A stretch of 64,000 nt of DNA from an uncultured Oligoflexia bacterium (GCA_964475985.1 CAYYYP010000011.1:846-64845); one strand, 5' to 3'; shown: positions 730 to 37,163, numbered from the stretch's first letter. The notes: generated by a model not told the origin, from the sequence alone. A program made the numbers and translations.

Positions 730-2906
730 GAATGGTCACCTTCTAGAGGGTGCGAAATAAGCGAATTATGCGAATTAACCCCCTGCCCAAGCATCGATTG
801 CTCAACTTCCAAATCAGAAATGTCGGTAATTGCAAACCATCGCGTCACGGGTCTCCCATCTCCCTCTTGTTGTTGGGCCGAACGAACCAAACCCGCCTTG
901 ACTAGACTTTGGAAAGCTTGCGCTAATGCATAGGAGGACTTATGGCGGCCAAAGACTTCGCTGATCTCGGTTTGGGTCAACCCCTTAGGTTTGACGCGAA
1001 GCTCTTCCAAGATGCGATCTGCTGTTGGATCGCCCGTCTTTTCGCCAAAGATGTATCGACAACTTGCGTCACAATAATCCCAAATCGCGGTCGCAGCCAA
1101 AAGGTGGGGCGGCCTGATCGTCGTTGAGCAATTAAGAACCGCGTAAAGAGAAGCAAGACGCAGTATCTGGGGCTCAGCTCTCGCCGTGACTGCTCCATAT
1201 AGCCCTGGCTTTCCTTCCGAGAGTTTCATGTAAAGGACTCGCCACATCGCCCGCGCTTCGGCATCGAAGCTGAGAGCGGAGCAACTCCCACCAAACCTCA
1301 GTGCTTCTTGAAGCCGAACCACGAAAGTGGAGATATCAACTGTGTCTCCACCTTCCGGAAGAAGCTTTGATCTCTTCACGCAAAGCCAGAGAAATCGATT
1401 GGCAAAGCCGTTCACGGACTCCGTTTCGGTCAGATACCGTAGGAGTTCGGGCCGAGTTATATGACCAATAATAGAAATATGTGCATTGCTTGCCTTTGAA
1501 GCATTACTCTTCGTGAGACTGCTAAGGTTCCCATGATCCCACGAGTCTCGAATAACCGCTGAAAGTTTATTTCCATCTCGCTCCACGGCTCGGAGAACAG
1601 AAGCAAGTTCAGTCTCGACATCGCAAAGTCGTTTGTCGCTGACTCCCGGATCAACGATCCTTTCTTCAGGCCCCCCGTCTTTATCTTCTCTCCATTCCTT
1701 TCTTTCATCGCGAACTGCCCACATCAGCCCTTCGCCACTAGCGAGTCCAGATTTGATACATTCTTTTCTCCAATTCGGATCGACTTGCTCAAAGAGACGA
1801 AGGATATGTCCCCATGAGGTTCCTTTTCGACCTTTTGAGCTTTCGCCGACGAGAACAGAAAAGAGGTTGAGATAATGTGCATCTGCTTCAACTGGAAAAT
1901 GGGCTTTTCGTCCGACAGCATTCCCAAACGCTGTTAAGAGTTGAATAAGAAGAGCTACGGAATCAGCTTCAGTATTGGGCTCGATTGCTCGAACTACTTC
2001 TCCAGCAAGACCGTAATACGCTTCTTCTCCAAGAGGCGAAGGCCATTGAGGCAGAGCAAGGGCCTTGAAAGAAATTTCGGAGGCGTCTTGGTTTTGAGCA
2101 ACTCCACTACGAATCAAAGACTTCCTTACATTGCTGACGAAGCGAGCCGCGTTCTCGTGAGGCGTTCGATTTCGCATCTGTTGATCGGATTGATCCGAAA
2201 ATAAAGGAGGTGAGTGCGATTGCAGGTCAAAGCGCAAAATCTCGCGAGTAATCTCTTCGTCGGGCTTTCCTTTGAGGACTGCCGCCACTACTTGATTTTT
2301 GAGTACGTCATTTCTTCCACCGCTTTTTCCGGATTCTAAAACCGTGGATTTCAGATCCGAAAAACAGTGCTCAAGCTGATCTATGAAATCAATGGGAAGC
2401 TCTTGCAATTCCGATGCATTCAAATTGAGAAGAGTATCTTGCGTGATCCAAACATAAGCTCTTCCCGTTTCCGGATGAATTGATCCGGGTAGTACCGTTT
2501 GATTTCCATCGCTCAAGAGCTCAACGATGGGTTTGCCTTGAGGATGAAGGCGAAATTTCCTACTCGTATGTCCAGCGTAACGAAAAAACGCAGTTTCACC
2601 TTTGGCTCCCCTTTTGCGAACGAGGGATGTGGGCAGGATTTTTTTTATTCTTTCCAGAAGGATCGGATCATCTGTATCAATATCCACTCCGACGATTCGG
2701 CTTGCCGCTCCCAACGGGAGTCCGATGTTGCCTGTGGGAAATGAGCTTTCCCATTCAGTCATTTCTTGACCAGTCGGTAGCACGCGGCAAAACCGAGACC
2801 AATCTTTTATGATCGGGTGCTTCCCGCGAGGTGCGAGAGGGATCACGGGAATACTGAGTTCGTAATATTTTCGACAGAGAACAGAAAAAATTTGTCCAGA
2901 TTCCAT
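726..2906 (-). CDS. Bifunctional primase/polymerase (Prim-Pol) fused to PriCT-like and DUF3987-like NTPase regions; mobile-element replication protein
   Basis: Prim-Pol motifs (PVIPL..GKHP, NIGLPLG, VGVDID, QTVLPGSIHP.TG..Y.W), GGRND motif, Walker-A-like LVGESSKGRKG, C-terminal winged-helix-like region. Confidence 0.85.
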   Translation of the reverse strand: MESGQIFSVLCRKYYELSIPVIPLAPRGKHPIIKDWSRFCRVLPTGQEMTEWESSFPTGNIGLPLGAASRIVGVDIDTDDPILLERIKKILPTSLVRKRGAKGETAFFRYAGHTSRKFRLHPQGKPIVELLSDGNQTVLPGSIHPETGRAYVWITQDTLLNLNASELQELPIDFIDQLEHCFSDLKSTVLESGKSGGRNDVLKNQVVAAVLKGKPDEEITREILRFDLQSHSPPLFSDQSDQQMRNRTPHENAARFVSNVRKSLIRSGVAQNQDASEISFKALALPQWPSPLGEEAYYGLAGEVVRAIEPNTEADSVALLIQLLTAFGNAVGRKAHFPVEADAHYLNLFSVLVGESSKGRKGTSWGHILRLFEQVDPNWRKECIKSGLASGEGLMWAVRDERKEWREDKDGGPEERIVDPGVSDKRLCDVETELASVLRAVERDGNKLSAVIRDSWDHGNLSSLTKSNASKASNAHISIIGHITRPELLRYLTETESVNGFANRFLWLCVKRSKLLPEGGDTVDISTFVVRLQEALRFGGSCSALSFDAEARAMWRVLYMKLSEGKPGLYGAVTARAEPQILRLASLYAVLNCSTTIRPPHLLAATAIWDYCDASCRYIFGEKTGDPTADRILEELRVKPKGLTQTEISEVFGRHKSSYALAQAFQSLVKAGLVRSAQQQEGDGRPVTRWFAITDISDLEVEQSMLGQGVNSHNSLISHPLEGDHS
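750..774 (-). repeat. Three TTCGC units at 9-bp period in the primase 3' end; candidate ori iterons
   Basis: GCGAA on + strand at 752, 761 and 770; encodes NSHNSLISH. Confidence 0.55.
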
Positions 2907-2924
2907 GGTCCATATTCCTTTCTG

Positions 2925-3269
2925 TTACTCACGACTGCCTGATGTAATTTCTTTGATCTGAGCCTCAAGGCCGCGCTCGCCTAGATATTTAAGCAGGCGA
3001 GAGCGAAGCAGCTTCCATCGAGGTGAATCTCCAATTTCCTGTTCGACGGAATCAAGAATGAGCCCGCGGTAATACGCAAGCGCGTCTAACAAGCGCCGTT
3101 CTGTGTTCTGATTATTCTCAAGCATATGATCTCCTGAATCGGAGACTGGACTTGGTAAGAGGAGAGAAAGGCAGGTTGGCCCTTTTCCAATTTTCCAAAA
3201 ACCAAATTCAGCATCCAAGTGCTCGTAAACGACTTGAGAGCCGATACGAGACAGACTACGTTTCACCAC
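2925..3269 (-). CDS. Hypothetical protein upstream of the primase; real start may be the internal MLENNQ
   Basis: 114 aa ORF co-oriented with and 18 nt from the primase gene. Confidence 0.5.
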   Translation of the reverse strand: MVKRSLSRIGSQVVYEHLDAEFGFWKIGKGPTCLSLLLPSPVSDSGDHMLENNQNTERRLLDALAYYRGLILDSVEQEIGDSPRWKLLRSRLLKYLGERGLEAQIKEITSGSRE

Positions 3270-3858
3270 TCGCAGTGGGTGTTAACTGGTGCTGAGAAAA
3301 CTTTTTTGGCTTCTTGCTCTGGCGTGAGCGTGAAGGTGCGCCGTTTTCGGCGGATTCGGACTCAAACAATTTGCGGTAGATGAGTCACGTGCGCGTTCTG
3401 TTTGCTTGCGGAACGCGTATCTTTTTGGGATTTTTCAAGCGTCCTGACGTGGGACCATCTCTCAATTTGCCTTAGAGAGTCACTTGCGGGCTTGCAAGTG
3501 GAGAGGTCTATGGCTGGACCTCCTCGCTTGATAATTCAGAGGATGGCCCTGACTTTTTCTAAAGTCAAACATATTTTTGACATAGGCTCGATGAAGACGC
3601 CCGAAAGGAATCGAACCAAGAACTAGCGTGAACGAAAGGAGAGGAGCCCTGCATACTCCGCTATCGACGTTCGCGTTCTCATTCTGAAGCGGGTCATCTC
3701 GATGTAAGCGATCCATTGAAGGCTACGGCTTTCCGTAACTTTTCAAACACCTGTCCTATTCTTAGACATCCAAGAGTACGAAAAATCGTACAACTATACG
3801 AATTTTCGAATAATGAGCGATTTTAAAATTGGTCTTTGATTTGCAGATTTAAGATGTC

Positions 3859-4461
3859 ATGAGGACGAGAGAGTTAAAGGCAAGCATCATATTTTTAGCT
3901 CTGTTTTCAGCGTTCTCCCTTTCAGGATGTGGCAAAGATGCCGGAGTTCCGAACTCTTCTCAGACTAATTCCCAAAACGCTCCCACCCCCTTACCGGCAG
4001 AGCTTCCAAGTGAAGATCCGAACCCAATCCCTTCGCCAAGCCCTACTCCAACAAATTTAGTTCAAACCCTGAGCATTACAACCCTGGGTGTTCAAGCCTT
4101 CCTAACACAGGCTGAAACAGGAAGCGCTCTGAAGCTCACCCTAAGTCCTAAACCTAATGACAATTCCGATTATGGCTGCGTAAGTTATCGGGTCGAGATC
4201 GGAGGAAACACTTTTCACACTGGCATACTGCGTGTGGAAGAAATCGATTCTGGAAATTGCTCTGCTTCGCCGACAAGCGCCGAAATCGACTATTCAAGCT
4301 ACCTTGCTGCTGGCGCTGCTAACGCGCTTGATATCCAAATTCGGGTCGAGCAGACCGACAGAAGTTGCTATTTGATGGGATTTCGGTGCCCATCTTGGAC
4401 GCCTCAGGCAACGGACTCGATGCACGGCGAGCTCACTTTAGAAATCAATCAACCCAACTAA
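3859..4461 (+). CDS. Hypothetical lipoprotein
   Basis: Signal peptide with lipobox LSG-C, then a Pro/Ser/Thr-rich linker. Confidence 0.7.
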   Translation: MRTRELKASIIFLALFSAFSLSGCGKDAGVPNSSQTNSQNAPTPLPAELPSEDPNPIPSPSPTPTNLVQTLSITTLGVQAFLTQAETGSALKLTLSPKPNDNSDYGCVSYRVEIGGNTFHTGILRVEEIDSGNCSASPTSAEIDYSSYLAAGAANALDIQIRVEQTDRSCYLMGFRCPSWTPQATDSMHGELTLEINQPN

Positions 4462-6008
4462 GTTTGCTGAATTTGTTCAGCGCTTTCCACCCCATGAAGT
4501 AAGCGCAAAATAACATCTTTCGCTCCGTAATCTTCCCGTCCTTTGGGCAGGAATTGTCGCAGTTGGGCCAAATCATTCCCGGCTGTCACTAAGGGCAACT
4601 CTTCGTAACCACTTTCCTGAGTCTGGCCAATGCCGATATTGGCCATCAGAGCATTGCAAAGGCATTTTCGATTGATCGTCTCCTCTATCTTGCCGCCTTT
4701 TTTGAGAAACTCATCAACGGGTTCGGCTGGACAACGATAAACGACCTTCCCATCTGCCGCACGAACGACCTGCCTGAGATAACCTAAATCACATTTTCTA
4801 GGACGCGCTTGAAAATGATCCTCTCCGGATAGACTTCCCTCAATCGGCACCACCTTAAACGGAAATCCGGTGGGCGAGGCAAGAGGGTCAGTGAAGACGG
4901 TAGGCGTCGGCTTCTCGGCGAGATCGTTTTTAAGACACCATTCCCGGATCACCGCATCTTTAAGCTTACGAGACAATCCCGATTCATTACAAAAAGCAAA
5001 AGCTGTTCCCACCTGAATTCCAGTGGCTCCCAAATGGAGCGCTTGCTCTAAACTTCGAGGTGAACCAAATGATCCGGCCAGCCAGAATGGGAGTCCAATT
5101 TTCTGAATGGCTTCCAGATCAGCATTATCCCGCTGTCCGTAGATCGGTTCCGATCTTTCGTTTAATTGCAGTGGACCTCTCGGTGGAGCATTGTGTCCTC
5201 CAGCAAAGTGATTCTCCACGACAAAACCATCGACCTTGCCATTGGATTTCCGAGAAAGATGAAGCGCCAAAGTCGCCGAGGAAATGATGGGTAAAAACTT
5301 AGGTCTCCTTAATAAAACACTAAGACCGCACATGTTTGGAAACACATGCTTAGGATCGAAACTGATATGGAGGTCATGCCCCTCAGTTTGATGGTCCTCT
5401 GTTAGGGACACTTTGATCACCGCTTTCTCATTTCGCGAAAAAAAATCTAAAACTCCTGGGATCTCTCGTGGCACGCCCGCACCCATGAGGACGTAATCTA
5501 CGCCAGCGAGCATAGCTCCATAAATTCCTGGAAGATTTGAAGTTTGAAGCTTTTCTAAAAAATTGATTCCAACAATGCCGTCATGTCCTTCTTTGGCCAA
5601 AAAGACTTCCACAAAGCTTGCAACAGCATTGAGCCGCTGAAGTCCTATCGACGCATCTAGAGTAGGAAGGGGGCTACGGTTATAACCCTGACCCGCTAAA
5701 CGTCCGTCTTTCTTCCAATAGGTATTAAAGATTTCTTGTGCGATTTTTTGATCTGGAAAATGGGATAGAGCGCGTTCCAAATGCCCGTGAACATCTCCGT
5801 CTTGAAGCCTTCGGACAAAAACTGTGTTGATCCCAGTTCCAGAGACCACGCCGAGCTGTCCTTCGGTCGAGACGGTTTTTGCAAGCTCCCAATTGGATAC
5901 CCCCACACCCATACCGCCCTGAATGAGAAGTGGAAACTCAGTTTGGTCGAGCGTATTTTGAGAGCGTTCTCTATGGATCATCGCTTCTTCTATGTAACCC
6001 GAAATCAA
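4458..6008 (-). CDS. Nitronate monooxygenase (2-nitropropane dioxygenase) family flavoprotein
   Basis: LIQGGMGVGVS, AGGHNAP, GIQVGTAF motifs. Confidence 0.85.
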   Translation of the reverse strand: MISGYIEEAMIHRERSQNTLDQTEFPLLIQGGMGVGVSNWELAKTVSTEGQLGVVSGTGINTVFVRRLQDGDVHGHLERALSHFPDQKIAQEIFNTYWKKDGRLAGQGYNRSPLPTLDASIGLQRLNAVASFVEVFLAKEGHDGIVGINFLEKLQTSNLPGIYGAMLAGVDYVLMGAGVPREIPGVLDFFSRNEKAVIKVSLTEDHQTEGHDLHISFDPKHVFPNMCGLSVLLRRPKFLPIISSATLALHLSRKSNGKVDGFVVENHFAGGHNAPPRGPLQLNERSEPIYGQRDNADLEAIQKIGLPFWLAGSFGSPRSLEQALHLGATGIQVGTAFAFCNESGLSRKLKDAVIREWCLKNDLAEKPTPTVFTDPLASPTGFPFKVVPIEGSLSGEDHFQARPRKCDLGYLRQVVRAADGKVVYRCPAEPVDEFLKKGGKIEETINRKCLCNALMANIGIGQTQESGYEELPLVTAGNDLAQLRQFLPKGREDYGAKDVILRLLHGVESAEQIQQT

Positions 6009-6145
6009 GACACGTGCGGTAAAAGTTCTGTAAGAGTTTTACCTTCCATTCCTAGCTGATCTGACAGACGGGACAAAATGTCCAATTGAGGTGATGCAAA
6101 CAACTTTCGCGTTCCTCATCGAAAGTTCGTTTTTATCTAAAGTTC

Positions 6146-6880
6146 ATGAAATCAAATTGTGAAAATGCGCACAATCACAGAAGATCAACCGTGAATATGT
6201 CAAACGATACGTACACCATTAGGACCGTCCTAGGGCTCAAGCACCCCGTGAGCGGGCTTCTTCACCTTGCAGGATTTATCTTGTCCATCCTAGGACTTGT
6301 TTGGTTTCTTTCGCTACCGACCAAAAGTAGCCGTTTTGAGTATCTATTTTCTGTATTCGCTTTTTCAATCAGCATGGCGCTTCTTTATCTTTCGAGCAGC
6401 TTCTATCACCTCATCAAGGCTTCTGATCGTTTGACCCGAATTTTACGCAAAATTGACCACTCGATGATCTTTGTTTTCATTGCAGGAACTTGCACGCCTT
6501 TTTGTTTAAGCTTTCCATCACTTCTCGCTAAGTGCCTAAGCGTCGCACTCATTTGGGCAATTGCAATGGGCGGGATTTTCTTTTCGACGCTTTTTTCAAC
6601 CGGATCGAGATGGATTCGAGTGGGAAGCTATCTTGCGATGGGAGGAGTAGGCGGAATTCTTGCCATTCAAATTCACGCGTTATTATCGCCTGAGAGCTTT
6701 CGTTGGATCGTTTTCGGAGGAGTGGCCTATATCCTAGGATCGCTTATTTACGCACTCAAATGGCCAAATCCTTCTCCACGGTATTTTGGATTCCATGAGA
6801 TCTGGCATATCTTCGTGCTTCTAGGAAGTGCATGCCATTTCTGGGCAGTCGAGCTTCACTTGAAATGGGCGTTCGCTTAA
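6146..6880 (+). CDS. Hemolysin III / PAQR family membrane protein; likely start at MSNDTY (6197)
   Basis: SSFYH, RKIDHSMIF, FHEIWHIFV motifs; multiple TM helices. Confidence 0.9.
   Translation: MKSNCENAHNHRRSTVNMSNDTYTIRTVLGLKHPVSGLLHLAGFILSILGLVWFLSLPTKSSRFEYLFSVFAFSISMALLYLSSSFYHLIKASDRLTRILRKIDHSMIFVFIAGTCTPFCLSFPSLLAKCLSVALIWAIAMGGIFFSTLFSTGSRWIRVGSYLAMGGVGGILAIQIHALLSPESFRWIVFGGVAYILGSLIYALKWPNPSPRYFGFHEIWHIFVLLGSACHFWAVELHLKWAFA
6158..6173. promoter_or_regulatory. CRP-like box TGTGA-N6-GCACA
   Basis: TGTGAAAATGCGCACA, one mismatch to the CRP consensus, between divergent nitronate monooxygenase and hemolysin-III genes. Confidence 0.35.
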
Positions 6881-6896
6881 ATTGCGATGAGCGTCA

Positions 6897-7304
6897 TCAC
6901 GAAATCTGAGTCACAATTTCAACATCAGGTGGCTCTTTTAGATGTCGTTTGACTGTGCACAAATTTGCAGCGCTGACCACGCTTTCGCGGTATTTCTCTG
7001 GAAAGGTAGTTGGCAATTTAAGTTCTAGAGTGATCTTTGTTACAAGCTTCCTATTTTCATCCCAAATGATTTTCTCTCTAAGTTCGATCCCATCGGTTGG
7101 AATCTTTCTTTTTTCACAAAAGCTTTGAATGAATACAGCCGCACAGGTTCCAATTGATGCAAGAAAAAGATCAAAAGGTCCCGGAGCCGCATTCTGGCCG
7201 CCGCTCTCTATCGACTGATCCGTCTGTACGGTGAAACCATTAAACTCCGCATCGACTCTCTTTTTTCCCTTAAAAAGAATCTTCATCTCTAGGTCAGGTT
7301 GCAT
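6897..7304 (-). CDS. OsmC family protein
   Basis: PGPFDLFLASIGTC and NLCTVKRHL motifs. Confidence 0.85.
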   Translation of the reverse strand: MQPDLEMKILFKGKKRVDAEFNGFTVQTDQSIESGGQNAAPGPFDLFLASIGTCAAVFIQSFCEKRKIPTDGIELREKIIWDENRKLVTKITLELKLPTTFPEKYRESVVSAANLCTVKRHLKEPPDVEIVTQIS

Positions 7305-7436
7305 TGACCACCTTTCTCTTAAGCCTTGTCAAAAGCACGCGAGTACCTCCTGAAGAGGCTAAGAAAGCCTAGCCTGGCTTATGATTCATCCAAGCTAGGC
7401 TCCGTGAATTGATACATGTAGAAACTCAAGTAAGTG

Positions 7437-7829
7437 CTATTTCTTGCCTGCTTTGCGGAAGTCCAAAACGTAATAGGTCAATGCCCATCGTTCTTCCTCA
7501 CTTAAATGCCCAAACCCCACCATCGAGGTATTCGGCAATCCTTGAGAAATGGTTTTAAAAACCTTCTCAGGCTTATCGCCTTGTTTGAATTTATCAGCGA
7601 TAAAATTTCTAGGTTTTGGATTCATCATCGCTCCTGCAACACCATTGCCGTCCCCTTTGTCGCCGTGGCAGGTCATGCAGTTGGTGGCGTAGGAGGTCTT
7701 ACCCTTTTCTAAAAGGACAGGTGTTAACTTTGGGGGCGCCGCTAGAACAAGCGAGCTTATCAAAATAGCCGCGACACTTCCCATTCCGACCATCATTCGT
7801 TTTATTTCCATCTCCATCTCCATTTTCAT
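7437..7829 (-). CDS. Periplasmic monoheme cytochrome c
   Basis: Signal peptide, CMTCH heme motif, PRNF, TSMVGF distal Met. Confidence 0.9.
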   Translation of the reverse strand: MKMEMEMEIKRMMVGMGSVAAILISSLVLAAPPKLTPVLLEKGKTSYATNCMTCHGDKGDGNGVAGAMMNPKPRNFIADKFKQGDKPEKVFKTISQGLPNTSMVGFGHLSEEERWALTYYVLDFRKAGKK

Positions 7830-7970
7830 TTTTCTCCTTTTCGTGTTGAGTAGCCGTGGACCTTTTCACATTTCCATGACCTTAAGTTCAAAACAAAGCC
7901 TCTGCACTTTCACAAAGCTCTGTTTTAAGTTATCGAAGAACTGAGTCTTGTCCCAAATGGGACGGAACCA

Positions 7971-9095
7971 GTGCCTATGAATTTGAATCGTTTTAGCAGA
8001 CAGATCATTCTTCCTGAAGTCGGCAGAGAAGGCCAAGAAAGGCTCAAAAGCGCTCGTGTGCTTTGCGTGGGTGTGGGTGGTCTTGGCTCGCCCGTGTGTT
8101 TGTACCTTGCCGCAGCTGGCGTGGGTAGCCTTGGGCTGATTGATCCAGACACGGTAGATCTTACGAATCTTCAAAGGCAGATCCTCTTTAAGGCTTCTGA
8201 CCAGGGAAGCTTTAAAGTTGATATTGCTAAAAAGAGGCTTCTTGAACTTGACCCTGAAGTCGTAGTTGAAACGCATAAGGAGCCTTTGAGTGCTCAAAAT
8301 GCCGAGCAGATTTTTAGCGGGTATAATCTGGTGATTGATGGCACGGATAATTTTCAGACCAAATTTTTGATTAACGATGCGTCCTATAAAACGGGAATCC
8401 CCATGATCTATGGGGCTGTAAACCAGTTTGAAGGGCAAGTGGCTTTGTTCTTTGGAAAAAAGGGGGCCTGCTATCGGTGCTTTTATCCTGAGCCTCCGAA
8501 AGCTCAAGTGAGAAACTGCGCCGAGGCCGGCGTATTGGGAGCAGTTGTGGGTGTGATTGGAACTTTGCAAGCAACTCTTGCTCTTGAATATCTCATCTCT
8601 CAAGGGGAGGCTCAGCATCCACTTTGCCCAGAAGTTGGGAGCCTCACGCTTTTTGATCTCAAGGGACACTGGAACATTCACTCGATCCAAGTTCCTAAGA
8701 ACCCGAATTGTCCGACCTGTTCGCGTCCCTCTCAGGAGATTCAGATCCACTCTTTTCCTTTGGATATCTGCACGCTGCGTACTGAATCGATTGATACAGA
8801 TCAGCTTCAAGCCATGCTCATTGAAGAACAACCAGTCTTTCTGCTTGATGTCAGAGAGGAGGACGAATGGCTGACGGGACGCCTGAAGGGAGCTCACTTT
8901 TTTCCTCTCTCGCGCCTTAAAAAGGGAGAACTCCCTGACATCCCACAGAATACTTCGCCTGTAGTCGTCTACTGCCAGTCGGGAATGCGCTCTATAAAAG
9001 CGATTCAAATCTTGGCCCAAAGCCAGAAGGTCCACCCCTTTTTTAATCTCAACGGAGGGTTGAATGCTTGGAGTGGACCTTTGATAAAATCTTAA
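7971..9095 (+). CDS. moeB: Molybdopterin-synthase adenylyltransferase with C-terminal rhodanese domain
   Basis: RFSRQIILPEVG, GVGGLG, CYRC and CPTC Zn motifs, rhodanese VYCQSGMRS. Confidence 0.92.
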   Translation: MPMNLNRFSRQIILPEVGREGQERLKSARVLCVGVGGLGSPVCLYLAAAGVGSLGLIDPDTVDLTNLQRQILFKASDQGSFKVDIAKKRLLELDPEVVVETHKEPLSAQNAEQIFSGYNLVIDGTDNFQTKFLINDASYKTGIPMIYGAVNQFEGQVALFFGKKGACYRCFYPEPPKAQVRNCAEAGVLGAVVGVIGTLQATLALEYLISQGEAQHPLCPEVGSLTLFDLKGHWNIHSIQVPKNPNCPTCSRPSQEIQIHSFPLDICTLRTESIDTDQLQAMLIEEQPVFLLDVREEDEWLTGRLKGAHFFPLSRLKKGELPDIPQNTSPVVVYCQSGMRSIKAIQILAQSQKVHPFFNLNGGLNAWSGPLIKS

Positions 9096-9096
9096 G

Positions 9097-9384
9097 TCAG
9101 TCGCTACAGATTCCACAGCAGCCTTCTTCTTTTTCGCTCGAACTTCCGCAAAACTCTTTTGTCTTTTCGATTTTAACTTTCCAAACTCGTGGACCTTGCT
9201 CAGCGTAATTCCAGCTAAAAACCCCAGGCCGCTGAGATTCAAACTGATAAAAAAGCGGCTTTGGATCGTGGTCCGTCACTAAGGTCAGACTGCTTCCAGA
9301 TGTCAGCTCATCAAAGCTCCGAAACACCATTCGATGACGATCCATGGGAAGAACTTCACGTAGATCAATTTGCTTTTCGTTCAT
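9097..9384 (-). CDS. DUF2249 domain protein
   Basis: IDLRE..P..RH..VF..FD.L..G....LVTDHDPKPL..QF signature. Confidence 0.8.
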   Translation of the reverse strand: MNEKQIDLREVLPMDRHRMVFRSFDELTSGSSLTLVTDHDPKPLFYQFESQRPGVFSWNYAEQGPRVWKVKIEKTKEFCGSSSEKEEGCCGICSD

Positions 9385-9410
9385 TTTTTCTTTCTCCTTG
9401 CTTTTTGGGG

Positions 9411-9767
9411 TTACAAATTCATTTCTTTTAATTTCGGGATGAATCGATCAATTTCAAAGCGCACTTCGATTTGACGATTTTCTAAAACAGCCTTCACTTT
9501 GAGTTCTAATTCTGCTTTAGGAGCCCGGTTCTCATGGCTGACTAAGAGTTGCTTTAGGTCCACCCGTGGCACCCAAAGCTTCAGGCCGCTACTGAAAAAA
9601 TCTTCATCAAGACGTAGCGCTTCTTCTTTCGTGGTTTCGATTCGTAGTTCAAGGCTTTTACTCCCCCAGGGGAGCGACTCTCTTAAGGAGCCTTCATTTA
9701 AGAGTTCTAGAGCCTCATTCAACTCAACGCGAATCCGAATAGAATCTCGCGATAGTTTTAAATTCAT
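9411..9767 (-). CDS. Hypothetical protein in the Moco operon
   Basis: 118 aa, coupled to mobA (overlap 9764-9767). Confidence 0.6.
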   Translation of the reverse strand: MNLKLSRDSIRIRVELNEALELLNEGSLRESLPWGSKSLELRIETTKEEALRLDEDFFSSGLKLWVPRVDLKQLLVSHENRAPKAELELKVKAVLENRQIEVRFEIDRFIPKLKEMNL

Positions 9768-10405
9768 TTTAACACCTCTTCGCTAATGCGAGCCCAATCG
9801 TAGGGAAAGTTGGCATTGGCCATAAGAGGCTTTGATTTTTCAGGGAGATCTATTCTCTTAAGACCGATTTGCTCAAATAGCCCTCGGATGGAACGTGTGG
9901 CAGAGGGCTTTTCTATTTGACAAAGATCTTCTACCGCCTTTTTCACTTTAGAACTGATCAGAATGAGGCAAGGCATCTCAAATCCATCATAGGCAAAGGC
10001 CCCATCACTGGCTCTGCCCTCATGCCCAATTTCAGCAATAAGCGTCTGAATCAGATTCTCACTCAAAAGCGGCATGTCTACGGGAAGAACAAGTAACCAC
10101 GCTTCTTCTTGTGGATCTATGGAGATTGTCCTCAATGCAGAGCTTATTCCCGAAAGAGGTCCCAATCCTAAGACAGCATCAGGAAGACTTTTTCTCCCTG
10201 GTACATCGCCACACAAAAGCACTTCGCCCATCGGGTAACGACGAACAGCATTTTGTGCAAGCCTTAAGGCTCGGTCAACGAAAAGCTCTCCTTGAATCTT
10301 TAAAAATCTCTTATCCGCTTGCATGCGTAAAGATCTCCCACCAGCAAGAACTGCGGCATACAGACAAATGGATTTTGGGTAGGTTTTTTTGCAAAAGGGA
10401 GTCAT
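9764..10405 (-). CDS. mobA: Molybdenum cofactor guanylyltransferase
   Basis: VLAGGRSLRMQADK, GPLSGI, LPVDMP, NANFP.D. Confidence 0.88.
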   Translation of the reverse strand: MTPFCKKTYPKSICLYAAVLAGGRSLRMQADKRFLKIQGELFVDRALRLAQNAVRRYPMGEVLLCGDVPGRKSLPDAVLGLGPLSGISSALRTISIDPQEEAWLLVLPVDMPLLSENLIQTLIAEIGHEGRASDGAFAYDGFEMPCLILISSKVKKAVEDLCQIEKPSATRSIRGLFEQIGLKRIDLPEKSKPLMANANFPYDWARISEEVLK

Positions 10406-10899
10406 CCGGATTTCTCCTTTTCGTCTCTATCATCGTCTTCATGATGGTGCTGACAAAGAGCATGGCCTTTAAGCCATTCGGTTTCGCCGTCGGAGTAAAA
10501 TTCTTTTTTCCAGATGGGAGCTCTCTTCTTAATCTCTTCAATGATGTAGCGAGAGGCTTGGTAAGACTCATCTCGATGCTTAGAGCTCACGCCAATAGCC
10601 ACACTGACTTCGCCCACACTGAGTTTTCCTACCCGGTGAAGAACACAAACCCTAATAGTATCCCCCCAGCGAGATAAAGCCTCCGTTGCAATCTCATTTA
10701 AAACTTTTTCAGCCAGCGGAGTAGCAGCGTCATAGCCCACAGCAACGACTTCACGCCCTAGGTTTTCAGATCTTACTGATCCAAAAAAGAAATTCTGCGC
10801 TCCATGACCAAAATCACTTGCAAACTCAAACACCTCGCTTGGATCTATTTTCTCATTTACAATTTCACAAAGAATTCGATCCATCGCATCACCCTCCAC
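10402..10899 (-). CDS. moaE: Molybdopterin synthase catalytic subunit
   Basis: HRVGKL.VGEVSV.IGVSSKHR, IKKRAPIWKKE. Confidence 0.92.
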   Translation of the reverse strand: MEGDAMDRILCEIVNEKIDPSEVFEFASDFGHGAQNFFFGSVRSENLGREVVAVGYDAATPLAEKVLNEIATEALSRWGDTIRVCVLHRVGKLSVGEVSVAIGVSSKHRDESYQASRYIIEEIKKRAPIWKKEFYSDGETEWLKGHALCQHHHEDDDRDEKEKSG

Positions 10900-11158
10900 A
10901 CACAGGGGGTAGTATAAAAAGCGAGCAGGATCTTTCGATCACATGATTGAGATCTAAAATCTGCGATTCGCTTGCAACCGCCGAATCTTTGATGAGTTCA
11001 GAGTCAGAAAAGTGCGGAAAAAATTCTTTAAAACGACTATCCAATTTTTCTTTTAAACTAGATATCGGAATAGGCTCTCGGGAATTTACAATGATTGGCG
11101 TTCCTTGCTTTTCATATTTTCTAAAGCTACCAAAAAGCCTAATCTCAATTTCGATCAT
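10889..11158 (-). CDS. moaD: Molybdopterin synthase sulfur carrier
   Basis: Ubiquitin-like size with C-terminal LPPVCGG. Confidence 0.88.
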   Translation of the reverse strand: MIEIEIRLFGSFRKYEKQGTPIIVNSREPIPISSLKEKLDSRFKEFFPHFSDSELIKDSAVASESQILDLNHVIERSCSLFILPPVCGG

Positions 11159-12444
11159 AAAAGCACCTCGCGCTCAAATCCGTTATAAAGTGAAACAATC
11201 TCGACCCCCTCATTTACTTTGGCTTGCGACCCCTCTTCAGGAAAAATGACCCAACAATTAGCGTCGAGAAGAGAACTCACCATGTAAGAGGCTTGTCCTT
11301 TGAGTGCTTCCACGGTGATTCCGTTTTTTTCAAATGTCGCTGTTCCTTTAAAAAAGCACCGTAGTCCTTCTGGCTTTGGGCAGTCGCGAGCAAGAGTTGC
11401 AAGGATCGATCGTTCCCTTTCAAGTCCAAGGCTTGCTCTGATAAATGGCTCTATAAAAAACCTTAAACCAACAGCTGTTGAGACTGGGTTTCCGGGTACT
11501 CCAAAAAAAGCACACTTTGTTTCGGTGGATGTATCAAGTTCAGCAAACAAGACAGGCTTTCCTGGGCGAATTGAAACTTTATGAAAATAGGTCTTAGCGC
11601 CCATTTCATCTAGAACCTCAGGGACAAAATCATATTTTCCCATCGAAACAGCCCCTGTGCTGATAATGAGATCGGCTCCCTCTGAAAGAACACTTTCAAG
11701 ATACTCTTTGTAGAGTTTAGGCTCATCGCGCACAATACCTATGTAATTTGCCTCAATGCCAATCCTTGAGAGAGCCGCTTTCAAAAACGGACCTGTGGAG
11801 TTACGAATCATTCCCGGTTGAAGGACCTGCTCGGCGGGCGAGACAAGCTCGCTTCCAGTAGAGAGAATCACCACCCTAGGCATCCTCTTCACAGGAAGAG
11901 TTGTAATCCCAAGGCTTGTGCACGCGAGAATATGCTCTGGCGTGATTCTCACATTTTTAGGGAGCACCAATTGCCCTTTAGAAAAGTCTGTTCCCAAAGG
12001 TCTTACGTTTTCCGCAGCTTTTACGGGCTTCGAGATTAAAATGGTTTCTGCCTGACTATTAGAAGCCCGATTCACTACAACGTCCTCGATGCGAACCACT
12101 GCATCGTAAGAATCAGTTGGCAGAGGTGCTCCTGTCATGATTTCAACAGCGGTGCCCGATTTGTTCCGATTAGCGTCTTCAAAGGCTCGAAGGTCGCCCG
12201 CAGCAACAAGTCCATGGACTGGAATGCGAATTGGTTCACTTTGAGTTGCGCCATGGGTATCTGAGGCTCGTACTGCAAATCCATCCATAGCGGAATTGGT
12301 AAATGATGGAACATCTTCTGGACTTAAGATCGGGTGTGCTAGAATTTTTCCGATCGCTTGAGAAATTGAAAGAGTTTCAATGCGAGGTTCACGTGATCTT
12401 CCTACTTCTTCTAAAATCTGAAGCGCTTGCTTGTATGAGATCAT
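11155..12444 (-). CDS. moeA: Molybdopterin molybdotransferase
   Basis: SAMDGFAV, IMTGAPLP, STGSEL, GAVSMG.YD, IRPGKP, GVPGNPVS. Confidence 0.95.
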   Translation of the reverse strand: MISYKQALQILEEVGRSREPRIETLSISQAIGKILAHPILSPEDVPSFTNSAMDGFAVRASDTHGATQSEPIRIPVHGLVAAGDLRAFEDANRNKSGTAVEIMTGAPLPTDSYDAVVRIEDVVVNRASNSQAETILISKPVKAAENVRPLGTDFSKGQLVLPKNVRITPEHILACTSLGITTLPVKRMPRVVILSTGSELVSPAEQVLQPGMIRNSTGPFLKAALSRIGIEANYIGIVRDEPKLYKEYLESVLSEGADLIISTGAVSMGKYDFVPEVLDEMGAKTYFHKVSIRPGKPVLFAELDTSTETKCAFFGVPGNPVSTAVGLRFFIEPFIRASLGLERERSILATLARDCPKPEGLRCFFKGTATFEKNGITVEALKGQASYMVSSLLDANCWVIFPEEGSQAKVNEGVEIVSLYNGFEREVLL

Positions 12445-13586
12445 GATTCTACCTCCGAAATGGCAAGGACTTTGGGATGCATGGCTCTGAGTGCAAGCTC
12501 AAGAAGAACACCAAAGCCCAGCACCCAAAGAAGGTTGCTTGTGAGCGCTGTAATAAGGATTGCCCCGGCGATTTTAACTACGCCAAAATCAGAGCGAAGC
12601 GTGGGGGCTGCAAGCTTTAGATGAAAAAGCCCTGTGGTCATGAGCAGAATTGAGACAAGAATTGTGGGATAGATTAAGACATGAGCGCCTTTTGCAAATT
12701 GGATGGCAGCTAAGAAAAGTAGGACAAATCCCATCATGGCTGTAGACCATGGACTTTTTGATCCGCCTCGAACATGGGCCGTGACACCACCTGAGCCGTG
12801 GCAAAAAGGCATTCCACCCAGAGCACCAACAACCAGGTTTCCAATACCGATGGAATACAACAGCCTACGCACGGTGACCCGAGAAGCTTTCTCCCCAAAG
12901 TAGCGAGAGCAGACATCTTTGGTGGCTAGCACTGAATTTGCTGAAGTGAGAACAATTTGAGGAATAAGAAGCCCTAAGATCAAATTGAGCCTCATTCCCT
13001 CGAATCCGGTTTGTTGACGGGCTTGAAAGGTTGCTCCTGCAGGAACGAGTTGGGGTGAGAAAACTGCGATCACAAGACCTACTGTCGCAAGCAGTCCCAA
13101 TACAGGAATTCCTCGTATTTCAGGGAGCAAGAGCATGAACAGAGCTCCTCCGAAAACAGCGATGCCCAGAGTGTGAGTCGTCAGAGCCTCCCAGCCTCCG
13201 AACGCCTTAACGCCCTGTAGGATCAGAAGAACGCCTAACCCTGCTTGCAGTTCATGGATCAAGCTACTCGGTACTCTCTTTGCGATTTGATCCACATTCA
13301 AAAAGCACATCAGAAGGCAATAAACCCCAAGAAGCATTCCACTGATTCGCACTTCTGCAAAACTAGCTCCCGCCGTCACTGCTGCTATGGCAATGGATTT
13401 TAATGGCTGAACGGCCATGGGTACTTTGAATAAATAGGCTGAAACAATGTAGGTAAGTCCCGTTGTAAAAAGAATCACAGGTCCAGAAAATCCTGCCTTC
13501 ATGGAAAGTAGTGCAAGAAGAGGAAACAGGACTGCACCGTCAGAAAAGGCACCCAAGAAATTTCTAAACGCCTCCTTCCATTTCAT
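12441..13586 (-). CDS. MOT1-type molybdate/sulfate transporter; start moved to MKWKEA
   Basis: GAFSDG..FP, PMAVQPLKSI, GGMPFCHGSGG...H MOT1 motifs; ATG at 13586 overlaps the moaC stop. Confidence 0.8.
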   Translation of the reverse strand: MKWKEAFRNFLGAFSDGAVLFPLLALLSMKAGFSGPVILFTTGLTYIVSAYLFKVPMAVQPLKSIAIAAVTAGASFAEVRISGMLLGVYCLLMCFLNVDQIAKRVPSSLIHELQAGLGVLLILQGVKAFGGWEALTTHTLGIAVFGGALFMLLLPEIRGIPVLGLLATVGLVIAVFSPQLVPAGATFQARQQTGFEGMRLNLILGLLIPQIVLTSANSVLATKDVCSRYFGEKASRVTVRRLLYSIGIGNLVVGALGGMPFCHGSGGVTAHVRGGSKSPWSTAMMGFVLLFLAAIQFAKGAHVLIYPTILVSILLMTTGLFHLKLAAPTLRSDFGVVKIAGAILITALTSNLLWVLGFGVLLELALRAMHPKVLAISEVES

Positions 13587-14632
13587 GGGTGACCTCCTCC
13601 GCTGGCTACATGAAGACAATGAGAAATGAGATCTCCAGCGTCCTCTAAGGATTCTTTGACAGCATTGGGACTTCCTGGAAGGCAAAGAATAAGGACACCT
13701 TGAATGAGATAAGCGCATGAGCGGCTAAGCCACGATTTTTTAGTGTAGCTGGCACCTGATTTTCTTAAGAGCTCTCCAAAGCCTAGGATTTCCTTTCCAC
13801 CAAGATCCTGGCTTAAACTCAACACAGTTTCAGGTGTGATGTCTCGTGTGGAAATTCCCGTGCCACCGCTTGTAATAATGACACGCACTTTTTTGCTTTC
13901 CACCAAACGCCTAAGCTCTTTCTTAAGCATTTCTGAGTCGTCCGGAAGAATGAAAGTGCTCTCGATCTTTGCGCCTTCGGAGGAGAGCCACTTTGAAGCT
14001 AAAGGCCCTGAAAGATCTTCTGCTTCTTTTCTAAAGCATCGATCGCTCAGTGTAATGACAGAAGCGCTTACACCTTGCAGAGACTTCTCTTTAGTTTTAT
14101 CTAGAGATGCGAAAATTGATTCTTGCGGTGAGCTTTCTGGATGACGCCAGACACCTGATTTTCCGCCTTCTTTTAGCTCAAGGCGAACGCTTCCAATTCT
14201 AAGTACCGGGTCGATTCCTTTAGTGAGATCATAAAGGCAGAGCAGCGCTGCATTCACGCCCGAGAGCGCTTCCATCTCCACACCCGTTTTGCCAATTGTT
14301 TTTGCTTCGCAAAATACTTGGATATGATCTTGATGAAGCTTCATCCAAACTCTCACTGAGGTCAGCGATAACGGGTGGCAAAGAGGAAGAAGCGTTGAGG
14401 TGAGCTTTGCACCTTGAATTCCAGTGGCCTCTGCTAAAAGAAGGACATCGCCCTTAGGAAGAGACTTTTCTCTGATTCTCTGAATGGTATCCTTTTTGGC
14501 GAAGAATATACCTGAGGCAACTGCACGCCTCTGAGTATCTTTTTTCTCCCCAATATCGATCATCCGAAAGGATGCTGCTTCGCTAGCCACCGATGGCTGC
14601 AAGGTTCCATGTGTTTCCATAATTTCCTTCAT
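13583..14632 (-). CDS. moaC: MoaC-MoaB/Mog fusion
   Basis: MIDIGEK..T.R.A.A, LPLCHP, TGVEMEAL, EKxGG-like LKEGGKSG; C-terminal ITLSDR, SGGTGI..RD.TPE, LPGSP. Confidence 0.9.
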   Translation of the reverse strand: MKEIMETHGTLQPSVASEAASFRMIDIGEKKDTQRRAVASGIFFAKKDTIQRIREKSLPKGDVLLLAEATGIQGAKLTSTLLPLCHPLSLTSVRVWMKLHQDHIQVFCEAKTIGKTGVEMEALSGVNAALLCLYDLTKGIDPVLRIGSVRLELKEGGKSGVWRHPESSPQESIFASLDKTKEKSLQGVSASVITLSDRCFRKEAEDLSGPLASKWLSSEGAKIESTFILPDDSEMLKKELRRLVESKKVRVIITSGGTGISTRDITPETVLSLSQDLGGKEILGFGELLRKSGASYTKKSWLSRSCAYLIQGVLILCLPGSPNAVKESLEDAGDLISHCLHVASGGGHP

Positions 14633-15566
14633 GTAGAAAATGAGAGACGGGCTTTCCTAAAATAAGCCGCTGAATCTCGTGAGTGAGTGCTTCTTGAGAG
14701 TCGTCTGAGCTTAAGTAGCGCCGTAGTGAAGCGTCTCCATCGCCAAAAAGGCAAAGTCTCAGTGCTCCTCTGGAAGACACTCGAAGCCTGTTACAAGTTT
14801 TGCAAAAGTCTTTTGAGTAAGGTGCGATAATCCCAATTGTGCCCAGGTAGTTTGGATGCTCATAAGTCACAGCAGGACCATCATCCACTTTGCGAGAAAC
14901 AGGTTTCCATCCAGCCTTTAGAAGCTCAAATTGAACAATGCCTCCTGAGAGATGTTTCTCGTCAAAAAGGGCTTGGTTTTTACCCGTGCGCATGAGCTCA
15001 ATAAACCTTACACTGATGGGCCGATCTCTAACCCATTCCATAAAGTGAGAGAGCTCATCGCCGTTACTCCCTTTCAGTAAAACAGCATTGATTTTTATGT
15101 TTTCAAACCCAAGCGTCAAAGCGTGCTCAATTCCCCGCATGACCTCACTAAAACGATCCATGCCTGTAATCCTATAAAAGCGATCAGGATCAAGGCTATC
15201 CAGGCTTACGTTGATGGAGGTCACGCCTGCATTTCTTAGGGGGAGCGCAAGCTCTCTGAGCCTATTGCCGTTAGTTGTAATCGCGATTTTTTTGATTTGA
15301 GAAATGCAGGAGATTGCAGATGCGATCTCAACTAAGTCTCGTCTCACGGTGGGTTCTCCACCCGTAAGCCTGACCTTTTGAATCCCGAGGCGAGAAAATC
15401 CTTGAACAAGCCTTGTGATTTCATCTACTGAGAGTTCAGAGTCTTGGGAGAGTGGACCTTGATAGCCATTGGGTAAACAATAGACGCAGCGAAAGTTACA
15501 GCGATCCGTTACCGAAAGGCGCAGATAGACAAATTGTCTTTCATACGTATCAACTAGTTTGTCCAA
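14583..15566 (-). CDS. moaA: GTP 3',8-cyclase; true start is probably TTG at 15566
   Basis: YLRLSVTDRCNFRCVYC, TGGEP, FCKTCNRLR, C-terminal GG; SD GGAAAGGAG lies 7 nt before the TTG. Confidence 0.95.
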   Translation of the reverse strand: MDKLVDTYERQFVYLRLSVTDRCNFRCVYCLPNGYQGPLSQDSELSVDEITRLVQGFSRLGIQKVRLTGGEPTVRRDLVEIASAISCISQIKKIAITTNGNRLRELALPLRNAGVTSINVSLDSLDPDRFYRITGMDRFSEVMRGIEHALTLGFENIKINAVLLKGSNGDELSHFMEWVRDRPISVRFIELMRTGKNQALFDEKHLSGGIVQFELLKAGWKPVSRKVDDGPAVTYEHPNYLGTIGIIAPYSKDFCKTCNRLRVSSRGALRLCLFGDGDASLRRYLSSDDSQEALTHEIQRLILGKPVSHFLHEGNYGNTWNLAAIGG

Positions 15567-21800: not shown

Positions 21801-22295
21801 AGCTCCGGATACGGAGTCCCGAGGAAAGTCCGCTTCAACCCATTCTTTAAATCCGCGTCTGACCATTGGGGCCTTTACCCGACGATCGCCATAAAAACGT
21901 CTCACAAGTGCAAGCCCTTTTTGGCAGATCCTAGGGTCCCAGCGATGAGAAGCTTTATTGCCATAGAGGTCAGTTGCTTTTCCGTACCCGTAACTTGGCC
22001 CAATTCGGGCAACCACGCCGTTTTTCACATAGGATTTAAGTAGGCAATTGTGAGTGTCATTGGGCGCACATAGAAAAACAAAGCTTGAGTCGTAATCAAA
22101 AATATTCCGGTATGCTTTTTCCCAATCGCGATTGGGATAGAAGGCGAGAGGATTATCCACCTGTGTAGGCTTAAAGTACCGAATCGGCGCTCCAAAAAGC
22201 GTTCGACTGGAGAGCGCTGCACCAACTACAGCCATTCCTTGTAAGAATTTTCTGCGACCTTCGTTTGCTCCGCCATTGTTGCCTTCATCACTCAT
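18810..22295 (-). CDS. Tat-exported molybdopterin alpha subunit, periplasmic NXR/NAR-like (Nitrospira/anammox-type lineage)
   Basis: Tat motif GRRKFL, FS0 motif CAPNDTHNC...RICQKG, Mo-ligand region [21 protein letters not shown]. Confidence 0.88.
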
Positions 22296-36415: not shown

Positions 36416-36802
36416 ATGATCACGTCCCATTTTATTCTTTATGTCAGCGACCAAGAGCGAAGCACTCGATTTTACTCCACCGTTCTTGGACAAAAACCAC
36501 AGCTTCATATGCCAGGTATGACAGAGTTTGGATTAAGCGATACTTGCGTTCTAGGGCTAATGCCCGAAGCAGGAATTAAGCGCCTGCTTGGTGATCGACT
36601 ACCTGATCCCGCAATCGCCAATGGAACTCCCCGTGCGGAAGTCTATCTCCGAGTCGATGACCCTCAAGCTTTTCATCAACGCGCAATTGAAATGGGTGCG
36701 CAAGAGCTGAGTCCCCTGGAAAAGCGAAGCTGGGGCGATATTGCTACATATAGTCTTGATCCTGACGGGCACGTACTTGCTTTTGCCAAAGCGGCTAAAT
36801 GA
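36416..36802 (+). CDS. VOC/glyoxalase family protein
   Basis: ILYVSDQERS..FY, WG....Y..DPDGHVLAFA. Confidence 0.9.
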   Translation: MITSHFILYVSDQERSTRFYSTVLGQKPQLHMPGMTEFGLSDTCVLGLMPEAGIKRLLGDRLPDPAIANGTPRAEVYLRVDDPQAFHQRAIEMGAQELSPLEKRSWGDIATYSLDPDGHVLAFAKAAK

Positions 36803-36809
36803 ATAGATT

Positions 36810-36872
36810 AAAAATTTTTCGCAGGCGACATGGAATATCCGCATCAGAGCCCGACCCACCCCCATCCCCCCC
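36810..36872 (-). other. cos/packaging-site-like G-tract
   Basis: Minus strand GGGGGGGATGGGGGTGGGTC...GCGAAAAATTTT. Confidence 0.3.
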
Positions 36873-37066
36873 TTAAGAGGCTTTCCCTTTTCAATCAATC
36901 ACCCCGTACGCGATAGGGTTAGCTAAGGGTAAAGAAACCCTTTGCATACCCTTTGAGTAAAATGTGGGCTTTAAAACACCCGGATCGATTCGGAATTAGA
37001 GGGAGAGATCAGAACCGAAATTAGGTTCCAACCTATGCCTTGGCGAAGTTGGCAGCGACGAACTGT

Positions 37067-37163
37067 CTTATTTCGCTTAATTCGCACTTCGCAGCGTTGT
37101 ACCAAAGATGGGAGGGACTTCTCTTCTCTTTGCTTCGCTTAATTCGCTTATTTCGCACTCGCA
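37067..37163 (+). repeat. TTCGC iteron-like cluster matching the primase 3' end
   Basis: TTCGC at 37072, 37081, 37088, 37134, 37143 and 37152; 37140-37158 is the exact reverse complement of 750-768. Confidence 0.7.

Follow-up and report, generated by a model that had tools for sequence, protein, structure and literature searches.

The stretch of 64,000 nucleotides (nt) analysed here, hereafter the window, comes from an uncultured Oligoflexia bacterium (GCA_964475985.1 CAYYYP010000011.1:846-64845) and carries a gene for a primase-helicase whose 3' end contains short tandem repeats (site A) that recur about 36 kb away (site B). The gene, two of its C-terminal regions and the repeat sites are located as follows, with the model confidence of the tail given as predicted local distance difference test score (pLDDT).

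726-2906, minus strand: primase-helicase gene, 726 amino acids, with PrimPol, MCM-like AAA+ (DUF3987 family) and C-terminal winged-helix domains
831-1028, minus strand: winged-helix domain, residues 627-692, with the candidate specificity residues S649 (nt 960-962) and H655 (nt 942-944)
729-815, minus strand: C-terminal tail, residues 698-726, non-conserved, pLDDT below 50, reading through the A box as VNSHNSLISH
750-778, minus strand: site A, three tandem 9-mers TTAATTCGC ATAATTCGC TTATTTCGC and then AC, a single arm
37068-37092, plus strand: site B1, TTATTTCGC TTAATTCGC ACTTCGC, two 9-mers and a third core at 7 bp
37130-37162, plus strand: site B2, TTGCTTCGC TTAATTCGC TTATTTCGC ACTCGC

The initial annotation of this DNA had reported that a 19-mer at the end of the primase gene is present exactly at both places, 36 kb apart, and that TTCGC recurs there with a 9-bp period, and both observations were confirmed. 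The 19-mer TAATTCGCTTATTTCGCAC occurs exactly at 750-768 (minus strand) and 37140-37158 (plus strand), with a third copy carrying two mismatches at 37069-37087 (plus strand), so that the window holds three matches with up to three mismatches, compared with 0.02 expected from 100 shuffles. The repeat unit is a tandem 9-mer, TTAWTTCGC. TTCGC starts at 9-bp spacing at 752/761/770 (minus strand), 37072/37081 (plus strand) and 37134/37143/37152 (plus strand) and at no other place in the window, and the pattern TTCGC-N4-TTCGC was found five times (0.29 expected), always at A, B1 or B2. The longest inverted repeat in the window is formed by A and B (32 nt, 743-774 / 37134-37165, 88% complementary). 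B1 and B2 are direct to each other, with core starts 62 bp apart, and inverted relative to A; site B has more units than site A, and both consist of tandem direct 9-mers without dyad symmetry. Site A lies within the last 18 codons of the primase gene, 21-49 nt upstream of the ATG of the next gene, orf90, in the same position as the arrays of two relatives, the metagenome contig L070 and the locus L087, while site B occupies part of the 460 bp that separate a glyoxalase gene (36416-36802, plus strand) from a serine recombinase gene (37261-37845, minus strand).

The PrimPol domain PF09250 was identified in the window primase by a Pfam scan (E 1.2e-18, residues 13-171); PF13148 (DUF3987) is not listed at E<=0.01 in this direct scan and is carried by homologues at 40-58% identity, and 112 columns across residues 288-690 are invariant or nearly invariant in the homologue alignment. 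When the AlphaFold (AF2) model of the enzyme (pLDDT 85) was searched with Foldseek, the ATPase part resembled MCM chains and the N-terminus resembled pRN1 ORF904 (1rni/3m1m/9aam), which was also matched by a PDB profile (E 5e-7). No Pfam, PHROG or PDB match of the window enzyme to a DnaG-type primase with a superfamily 3 (SF3) helicase, the type of P4 alpha, was found. In the model, the predicted winged helix comprises helices 627-638, 645-651 and 658-670 and strands 674-692, with S649 falling within helix 2 and H655 in the turn that precedes helix 3. The conserved part of the protein ends at about W690, and because the array sits in the non-conserved, low-pLDDT tail, the reading frame NSHNSLISH is an accident of read-through and not a coding constraint. 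The ratio of non-synonymous to synonymous substitution rates (dN/dS) is 0.10 for the primase compared with L070 and 0.06-0.17 for the module genes, indicating purifying selection.

Repeats in this position are common in the family. The first two homologous loci, L001 and L002, carry 9-bp-period repeats in the same place with other cores (TTCGT and GTCGT, respectively), and the survey was made on 80 metagenome loci encoding relatives plus these two, 77 of which had enough downstream sequence to score for arrays. In 52/77 loci, three or more 9-bp-spaced units form an arm that lies about 0-450 nt from the helicase gene end, and site A, with its tandem short repeats at the 3' end of the replicase gene, follows this layout. 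Two opposed arms not more than 80 nt apart are present in 27/77 loci (median gap 26 nt), in the order [NCGAN]x3, gap, [NTCGN]x3 in 25 of the 27, and the spacer between the arms is GC-rich in L009. The open reading frames of the homologues mostly stop before or within the array. In the window lineage, the opposed arms that about half of the relatives' arrays possess are made up by A and B jointly, and by neither site alone. A scan of viral contigs with a loose box pattern yielded mostly unrelated (TTCGCACNN)n tandem repeats, with only L042 and L064 having a helicase.

The C-terminal domains of about 66 loci were aligned and sorted by iteron core, which revealed a correspondence between two residues and two bases. 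At the H655 column, His accompanies a core-final C in 31/31 loci, not counting three rows that have K, R or a gap, and Asn accompanies a core-final T in 35/35 (Fisher p = 1.6e-19). At the S649 column, all 16 loci whose core begins with G have Arg, always as Arg-Asp (Fisher p = 4e-11), while those beginning with T have Ser in 27 loci, Arg in one and different residues in the others. All four combinations exist, i.e., GTCGC with RD+H, GTCGT with RD+N, TTCGC with S+H and TTCGT with S+N. A neighbour-joining tree built from the helicase core without the winged helix requires about 15 changes of the His/Asn residue and about 14 of the last base of the iteron core; L090 (TTCGC, S+H) and L102 (TTCGT, S+N), whose helicases are otherwise nearly identical, represent a natural specificity swap. 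Given these many concordant switches and the L090/L102 pair, the residue-base correlation, as read from the alignments, is not explained by shared ancestry. The covariation makes it highly likely that the C-terminal winged helix reads the iterons. The window enzyme, with S649 and H655, is of the TTCGC type, and A and B both carry TTCGC, suggesting that both sites are very probably read by its DNA-binding domain. The proposal that the repeats are iterons of the primase-helicase, as made in the initial annotation, gains its support from this covariation.

A distant copy, the presence of which at homologous primase loci had been raised at the outset, was essentially absent within +-10 kb in the 54 loci with a proximal array, where one site at the gene 3' end is the norm. 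In only three of them was a second triple cluster present, at 0.5-1.3 kb upstream, either within the helicase module or immediately 5' of it. Additional clusters of any kind are few, and their distances upstream span 0.5-2.4 kb and are mostly 1.1-1.6 kb; pairs of a locus's own core away from the gene end numbered 6, compared with 3.3 for control cores. Since these loci are essentially without distant sites, the far second site is special to the window lineage, and perhaps also to some TTCGC-type elements. A second cluster just 5' of the DUF3987 module recurs in L086, L101, L120 and L127, about 1.1-1.6 kb upstream of the gene end, and the cluster of L003 (4235-4257) falls at about residue 315 of a fused PrimPol-DUF3987 gene; such clusters may be autoregulatory or may serve as second loading sites.

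The surroundings of the two sites, which include a molybdenum cofactor (Moco) pathway and a type-II dimethyl sulphoxide (DMSO) reductase resembling nitrite/nitrate oxidoreductases (NXR/NAR-like), are given below.

457-729, minus strand: orf90, whose start overlaps the primase stop (ATGA), conserved in L070 (89%) and L087 (41%)
2925-3269, minus strand: orf114, directly upstream of the primase gene, conserved in L070 (93%) and L087 (62%)
3270-36802, no strand assigned: cargo, with NMO, HlyIII, OsmC, cytochrome c, Moco biosynthesis, molybdate transporter, type-II DMSO-reductase (NXR/NAR-like) alpha/beta/gamma/delta, Crp, NnrS, NirK-cytochrome c fusion, SCO1, ECF sigma pair and glyoxalase
36799-37044, plus strand: non-coding conserved unit (about 250 nt) adjoining B1 on its left, with the ends TTTTCGC..GGAWGATCC..CCCCCATCCCCCC and GAACCGAA..AGGTTCCAACCT
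37261-37845, minus strand: small serine recombinase of resolvase type, 194 amino acids (PF00239, E 1e-45), convergent on site B
37842-38174, minus strand: orf110, overlapping and co-oriented with the resolvase gene, with a homologue in the prophage early region of L152
38360-39148, plus strand: orf262, a rare all-alpha family of 19 proteins, divergent from resolvase/orf110

A metagenome contig with the same arrangement, Ga0172367_10000347 (70.7 kb), was found without using the motif, via its helicase (L087) and via orf262 (L150). Its genes run from orf262, orf110, resolvase, the distal site, ArsC, MIP, MerR, glyoxalase, SCO1, NirV and NirK through NXR-like, Moco and cytochrome c genes to orf114, the helicase, the proximal site, orf90, orf147 and a large serine recombinase, and about 36 kb separate its two sites, which are inverted like those of the window. 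The iteron is a different one. The proximal array, AAATACGT TAAATACGT ACTACGT, aligns base for base with the A box of the window just upstream of the orf90 start, and the distal site, TAAATACGT AGAATACGT ACAATACGT ACTACGT, is separated from the resolvase stop by about 100 nt. Within the 39.5 kb examined, these two sites alone contain the 14-mer ATACGTACTACGTA and 9-bp-spaced TACGT pairs. The helicase has Asn in the H655 column, and in place of the TTCGC-type B1 box the contig retains a decayed homologue, TTATTTTGC TTAATTAGC. Both sites and the protein have therefore changed in concert, which is expected of functional coupling and not of a relic.

Site B is also conserved in other genomes. Contig 67 of JAIEMT01 (L013) is syntenic with window 36913-39202 at 83-87% nucleotide identity, a span that includes the boxes, resolvase, orf110 and orf262, and its other flanks are unrelated; contig 47 (L011) has a further copy of 36807-37174 (370 bp), located next to an IS110 transposase. 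In the window, L011 and L013 (two genomes), B1 and B2 are invariant save for one base after the last 9-mer of B2, while the whole stretch is 80% identical, and because the boxes are invariant while their flanks diverge by about 20%, the pattern indicates selection on the B boxes. L155 has kept the glyoxalase gene, the non-coding unit and the resolvase, with a single TTCGC box homologous to B1. The claim of the initial annotation that the cluster at 37.1 kb is a second primase-binding site is borne out in so far as these invariant boxes, and the joint switch of both sites in Ga0172367, identify a cognate site; that site B is a maintained cognate site of the primase-helicase is probable. Its alternative, a decayed primase gene, found no support. 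The frame ASLNSLISHSQ on which it relied is present at site B, as the mere translation of the shared 19-mer and with no primase remnant around it; a tblastn search with 120 homologues detected no helicase remnant elsewhere in the window (best E 0.04, not near 37 kb), and blastx near site B and at the orphan boxes of other genomes returned no helicase trace, only the iteron-encoded peptide. No Rfam match was obtained in the site-B region at E<=1.

The non-coding unit left of B1 has a constant length of 246-252 nt and a variable middle, its ends also being given as TTTTCGCGGACG..GGAWGATCC..CCCCCATCCCCCC and GATCxGAACCGAA..AGGTTCCAACCT. It is also present in L011, L013, L150 (about 7973-8220), L155 (170-420), L157 (5743-5994) and L152-L154 (about 9465-9712), and adjoins every orf262-family gene examined, one of them in a prophage. 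No Rfam match was obtained for it, and alifold on seven copies returned only two short hairpins.

Genome-wide, the 19-mer was found at 12 loci in 185,579 species genomes, compared with about 4 expected by chance as a rough estimate, including six loci in Acidobacteriota metagenome-assembled genomes (MAGs), two Nitrococcus MAG contigs, the two JAIEMT01 contigs, one Gammaproteobacteria MAG and one Myroides, the last of which is probably a chance match. In L003, L004 and L009 the box lies at the 3' end of a DUF3987 gene. The Acidobacteriota genome CBDFLV01 has two complete sites 10.1 kb apart in direct orientation with insertion sequence (IS) elements between them, and Nitrococcus has one array beside the helicase and another between a capsid-protease gene and a KfrA gene. 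The former is an array of five TTCGC clusters downstream of the helicase gene at the contig start (L004, 60-313), and the latter a homologous box pair between a capsid-protease fusion gene and a KfrA_N gene (L007, 2825-2921); the two contigs may belong to one phage-plasmid-like element, with the assembly broken at the repeat. At 4277-4400, L005 has an orphan TTCGC box between an adenosine deaminase gene and an aldolase/SDR gene, and about 30 nt beyond it three GCGCTTWT repeats at 9-10-bp spacing, which form a second type of repeat.

Both sites are situated near the ends of a conserved block, with the order large serine recombinase, orf147, orf90, site A, primase, orf114, Moco/NXR-like/NirK cargo, site B, resolvase, orf110 and orf262. 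L070 is syntenic with window 1-14682 (76-85% nucleotide identity over the three best-conserved stretches) and displays what lies to the left of the window, namely orf90, orf147, a 576-amino-acid large serine recombinase, an Erf-like gene, a GST gene and chromosomal genes; L087 has the same set of orf90, orf147 and recombinase. Between the window lineage and Ga0172367, homology ends just past the recombinase and just past orf262 (about 39.2 kb), with unrelated outer flanks, and that of L013 likewise ends at 39202; orf262 is the last gene of the block common to Ga0172367 and JAIEMT01. Because homology stops at the recombinase and at orf262, the block is taken to span about 42 kb, with A about 2.6 kb and B about 2.1 kb inside its ends and TTCGC pointing outwards at both. 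It is rather likely, from this shared synteny, that both sites belong to one element, and the block may be, in our reading, an integrative and potentially self-replicating element in a Bdellovibrionota-like chromosome. The earlier suggestion that the two flanks are tied into one replicon stands as far as one conserved block from recombinase to orf262 is concerned, and is hypothetical for replication. A plasmid origin of the window was considered and rejected, since a PLSDB blastn search gave no plasmid match for either flank and the right part (41-64 kb, with photolyase, Dus and epimerase genes) is plain, ordinary chromosome. No tRNA was found in the window.

The cargo synteny is kept in L070, L087 and L150. 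The type-II DMSO-reductase set consists of a 1161-amino-acid alpha subunit (18810-22295), a beta subunit, an EB_dh gamma subunit and a delta chaperone, and hundreds of relatives 70-93% identical to the alpha subunit exist, the named ones mostly from Bdellovibrionota and Oligoflexia MAGs. The region 7437-33947 encodes a periplasmic-type NXR/NAR-like molybdoenzyme with a full Moco pathway in a Bdellovibrionota-like chromosome. The resolvase is 92% identical to that of L013 and 80% identical to those of L150 and L155. Neither Pfam nor PHROG matched orf90, orf110, orf114, orf262 or orf332, and no PDB structure matched the fold of the orf262 model (pLDDT 77). Homologues of orf262 and orf110 are found in the early region of a prophage (L152-L154) with a portal gene, a diversity-generating retroelement (bAvd and reverse transcriptase) and a large serine recombinase beside a GST gene, and L157 pairs an orf262 homologue with a tyrosine recombinase in place of the resolvase. 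The link between the L070 and L152 recombinases is weak (24% identity), and their GST neighbours are not homologous. At 39747-39820, a contig from one wastewater run (X1) skips 72 bases and has 1503 others instead, the replacement of about 1.5 kb being possibly an IS element in or next to orf332. Three further genes, unrelated to the finding, encode a 1145-amino-acid HEAT-repeat protein (45432-48869), an HNH endonuclease with a DUF222 region (52035-53324) and a 1148-amino-acid secreted-type protein with Laminin_G_3, fn3 and Ig-like domains (53644-57090).

The explanation that we favour, and still only tentatively, is that A and B are both cognate arrays of one enzyme in a conserved block, with B an auxiliary cis element that acts by looping. 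The enzyme bound at the oppositely oriented arrays would pair A and B by DNA looping, the pairing would supply the two opposed arms that many relatives hold side by side, and the opposed arms would allow loading of helicase hexamers, so that the distal site could serve as an auxiliary cis element, by analogy with crr for P4 ori1. Looping is proposed because neither A nor B alone has opposed arms, and only both together do. A positive role of site B in initiation, taken by itself, is possible and at the same time doubtful. Its furthest extension, a ~42-kb integrative replicon that moves an NXR/NAR-like respiratory module among Bdellovibrionota-like bacteria, with an origin split into opposed half-sites near the ends and complete only when the primase-helicase loops them, would be quite unlikely. 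Several points weigh against the favoured explanation. No DnaA box, AT-rich stretch or sigma-70 promoter was found at A or B; GC content around the two direct arms of site B is 0.47-0.50, and no AT-rich region is flanked by iteron sets at either site. Attachment (att) sites were not found, and metagenome contigs of only 3-8x depth showed neither an excised form nor a copy-number step. The family survey, in which none of the 54 loci has a distant site within +-10 kb, implies that the split layout is not the family norm; the unbiased two-site covariation rests on one extra genome, Ga0172367, and the two-site cases of CBDFLV01 and Nitrococcus, found through the motif, are biased evidence. Synonymous divergence (dS) between the window and L070 is 0.34-0.72 for the primase module (726-3269) versus 1.96 for MoeA (11155-12444), which suggests a more recent exchange of the primase module than of the cargo and hints at separate histories. 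The resolvase/orf262 module with its boxes also occurs in the JAIEMT01 contigs, once beside the IS110 transposase, and could be a separate unit.

The other explanations differ mainly in what they make of site B. It might be a cognate array with a negative role, where initiator titration or handcuffing with A keeps the integrated element from replicating freely; plasmids are known to be restrained in this way by iteron arrays outside their origins, with P1 incA as the model. The same evidence for cognate binding would fit this role, as would a site B with more units than A and without origin-like features of its own, and metagenomes with no raised copy number. No evidence here separates a negative from a positive role, and the lack of the relatives' two opposed arms at either site alone in the window lineage speaks against it; we consider it unlikely. 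Alternatively, site B may be part of an independent small mobile module, made up of the 250-nt unit, the boxes, the resolvase, orf110 and orf262, which would use a TTCGC-type helicase supplied in trans; its distance of 36 kb from the primase would then reflect inherited synteny and not a single element. Such a module would account for the unrelated flanks in L013, the unit and boxes beside the transposase in L011, the orf262/orf110 homologues in a prophage and beside a tyrosine recombinase, the orphan TTCGC boxes without a nearby helicase in several genomes, and the very different dS of primase module and MoeA. However, layout, distance and inverted orientation are all kept in Ga0172367, where the distal iterons switched with the helicase, and the block edges coincide with the recombinase and orf262, which makes it distinctly unlikely that the module is independent.

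A functionless relic, i.e., the 3' end of a second, decayed primase island, is improbable. Arrays normally lie at helicase 3' ends, in L089, L107 and L142 a small serine recombinase follows the family helicase at a distance of 1-2 kb, and one frame of site B reads NSLISH; yet the tblastn and blastx searches described above recovered nothing but the iteron-encoded peptide, the boxes are invariant between flanks about 20% diverged, and a relic would not gain TACGT repeats in step with the helicase. That A and B are crossover sites at which the 194-amino-acid serine recombinase inverts or resolves the 36-kb segment is hardly credible, even though the sites are inverted, the recombinase gene abuts one of them and recombination sites would likewise stay matched within a genome. 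The tandem direct 9-mers have no dyad-symmetric half-sites, most family loci possess such arrays with no recombinase present, the arrays covary with the helicase winged helix, and the segment has the same orientation in the window, L070 and Ga0172367. Logan contigs of four wastewater metagenomes (3-8x) are collinear over both sites with no strand-switch joints, at a depth at which a rare inversion could escape.

The favoured arrangement of two cognate arrays read by one enzyme can be compared with several known systems. P4 has two separated cis sites, ori1 and crr, which carry the same short iterons 4.5 kb apart, crr being auxiliary to ori1 and both being needed in cis for replication; one of the two is reportedly (Ziegelin and Lanka 1995) situated near the 3' side of the alpha gene. 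P4 alpha combines primase, helicase and winged helix in one polypeptide in that order (PMC2777425), and the window locus shares this order as well as the same iterons at two separated sites, as in Ga0172367 with another iteron. However, the window enzyme is not a P4 alpha homologue, as it has a PrimPol (AEP) and not a DnaG-type primase, and its ATPase is DUF3987/MCM-like by fold and not SF3 by sequence; moreover, 36 kb separate its sites (a distance that circularisation of the block would reduce to about 4.7 kb across the ends), and its iterons are tight-tandem 9-mers. In phage-inducible chromosomal islands (PICIs) and Staphylococcus aureus pathogenicity islands (SaPIs), the pri-rep-ori region consists of a primase-helicase gene followed by iterons, with two iteron sets flanking a spacer in PICIs (PMC6092414), similar to the iterons directly after the primase-helicase gene in the window and to the two-arm layout of many relatives of its enzyme. 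The proximal site of the window, in contrast, is one arm, the relatives' spacer is not AT-rich, and the ~42-kb block has respiratory cargo, a large serine recombinase as integrase and no evidence of packaging or a helper phage.

The origin of pRN1 is located downstream of orf904 (PMC4234260), and the winged helix of ORF904 was proposed as the origin reader, its cognate site not having been identified (PMC2777425). ORF904 resembles the window enzyme in PrimPol homology and C-terminal winged helix and differs in its SF3 helicase class, while the window family displays the residue-to-base correspondence. Initiator-bound iterons pair at a distance by looping or handcuffing in the R6K gamma/alpha/beta origins and P1 incA. 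Pairing of A and B would be analogous, but the initiators (pi and RepA) are unrelated, and distances are 1-4 kb on plasmids versus 36 kb in a chromosome. With the Hin/Gin invertases the locus shares a small serine recombinase gene beside one of two inverted sites, and differs from them in sites without dyad symmetry and in a single segment orientation in three lineages and four runs (low depth). DUF3987 itself has been reported as a putative, uncharacterised helicase that occurs in mobile elements in fusion with AEP primases (PMC5862659), and a full-text search of the literature library used returned no paper with both 'DUF3987' and 'iteron'.

Iteron origins beside primase-helicase genes are already known from P4, PICIs and SaPIs. 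What the locus adds for the very large DUF3987 family are the family-wide 9-bp iterons at the gene 3' end and the residue-base covariation that assigns them to the winged helix, which would allow each element's iteron to be predicted from sequence (His for C, Asn for T, Arg for G), as well as, in one lineage, a probable second cognate site 36 kb off that changes in step with the first and brackets a nitrogen-cycle cargo. If the sites cooperate, they would provide a chromosomal example of long-range iteron pairing, and if the block is mobile, the finding would bear on the spread of nitrite-/nitrate-oxidoreductase-type gene clusters.

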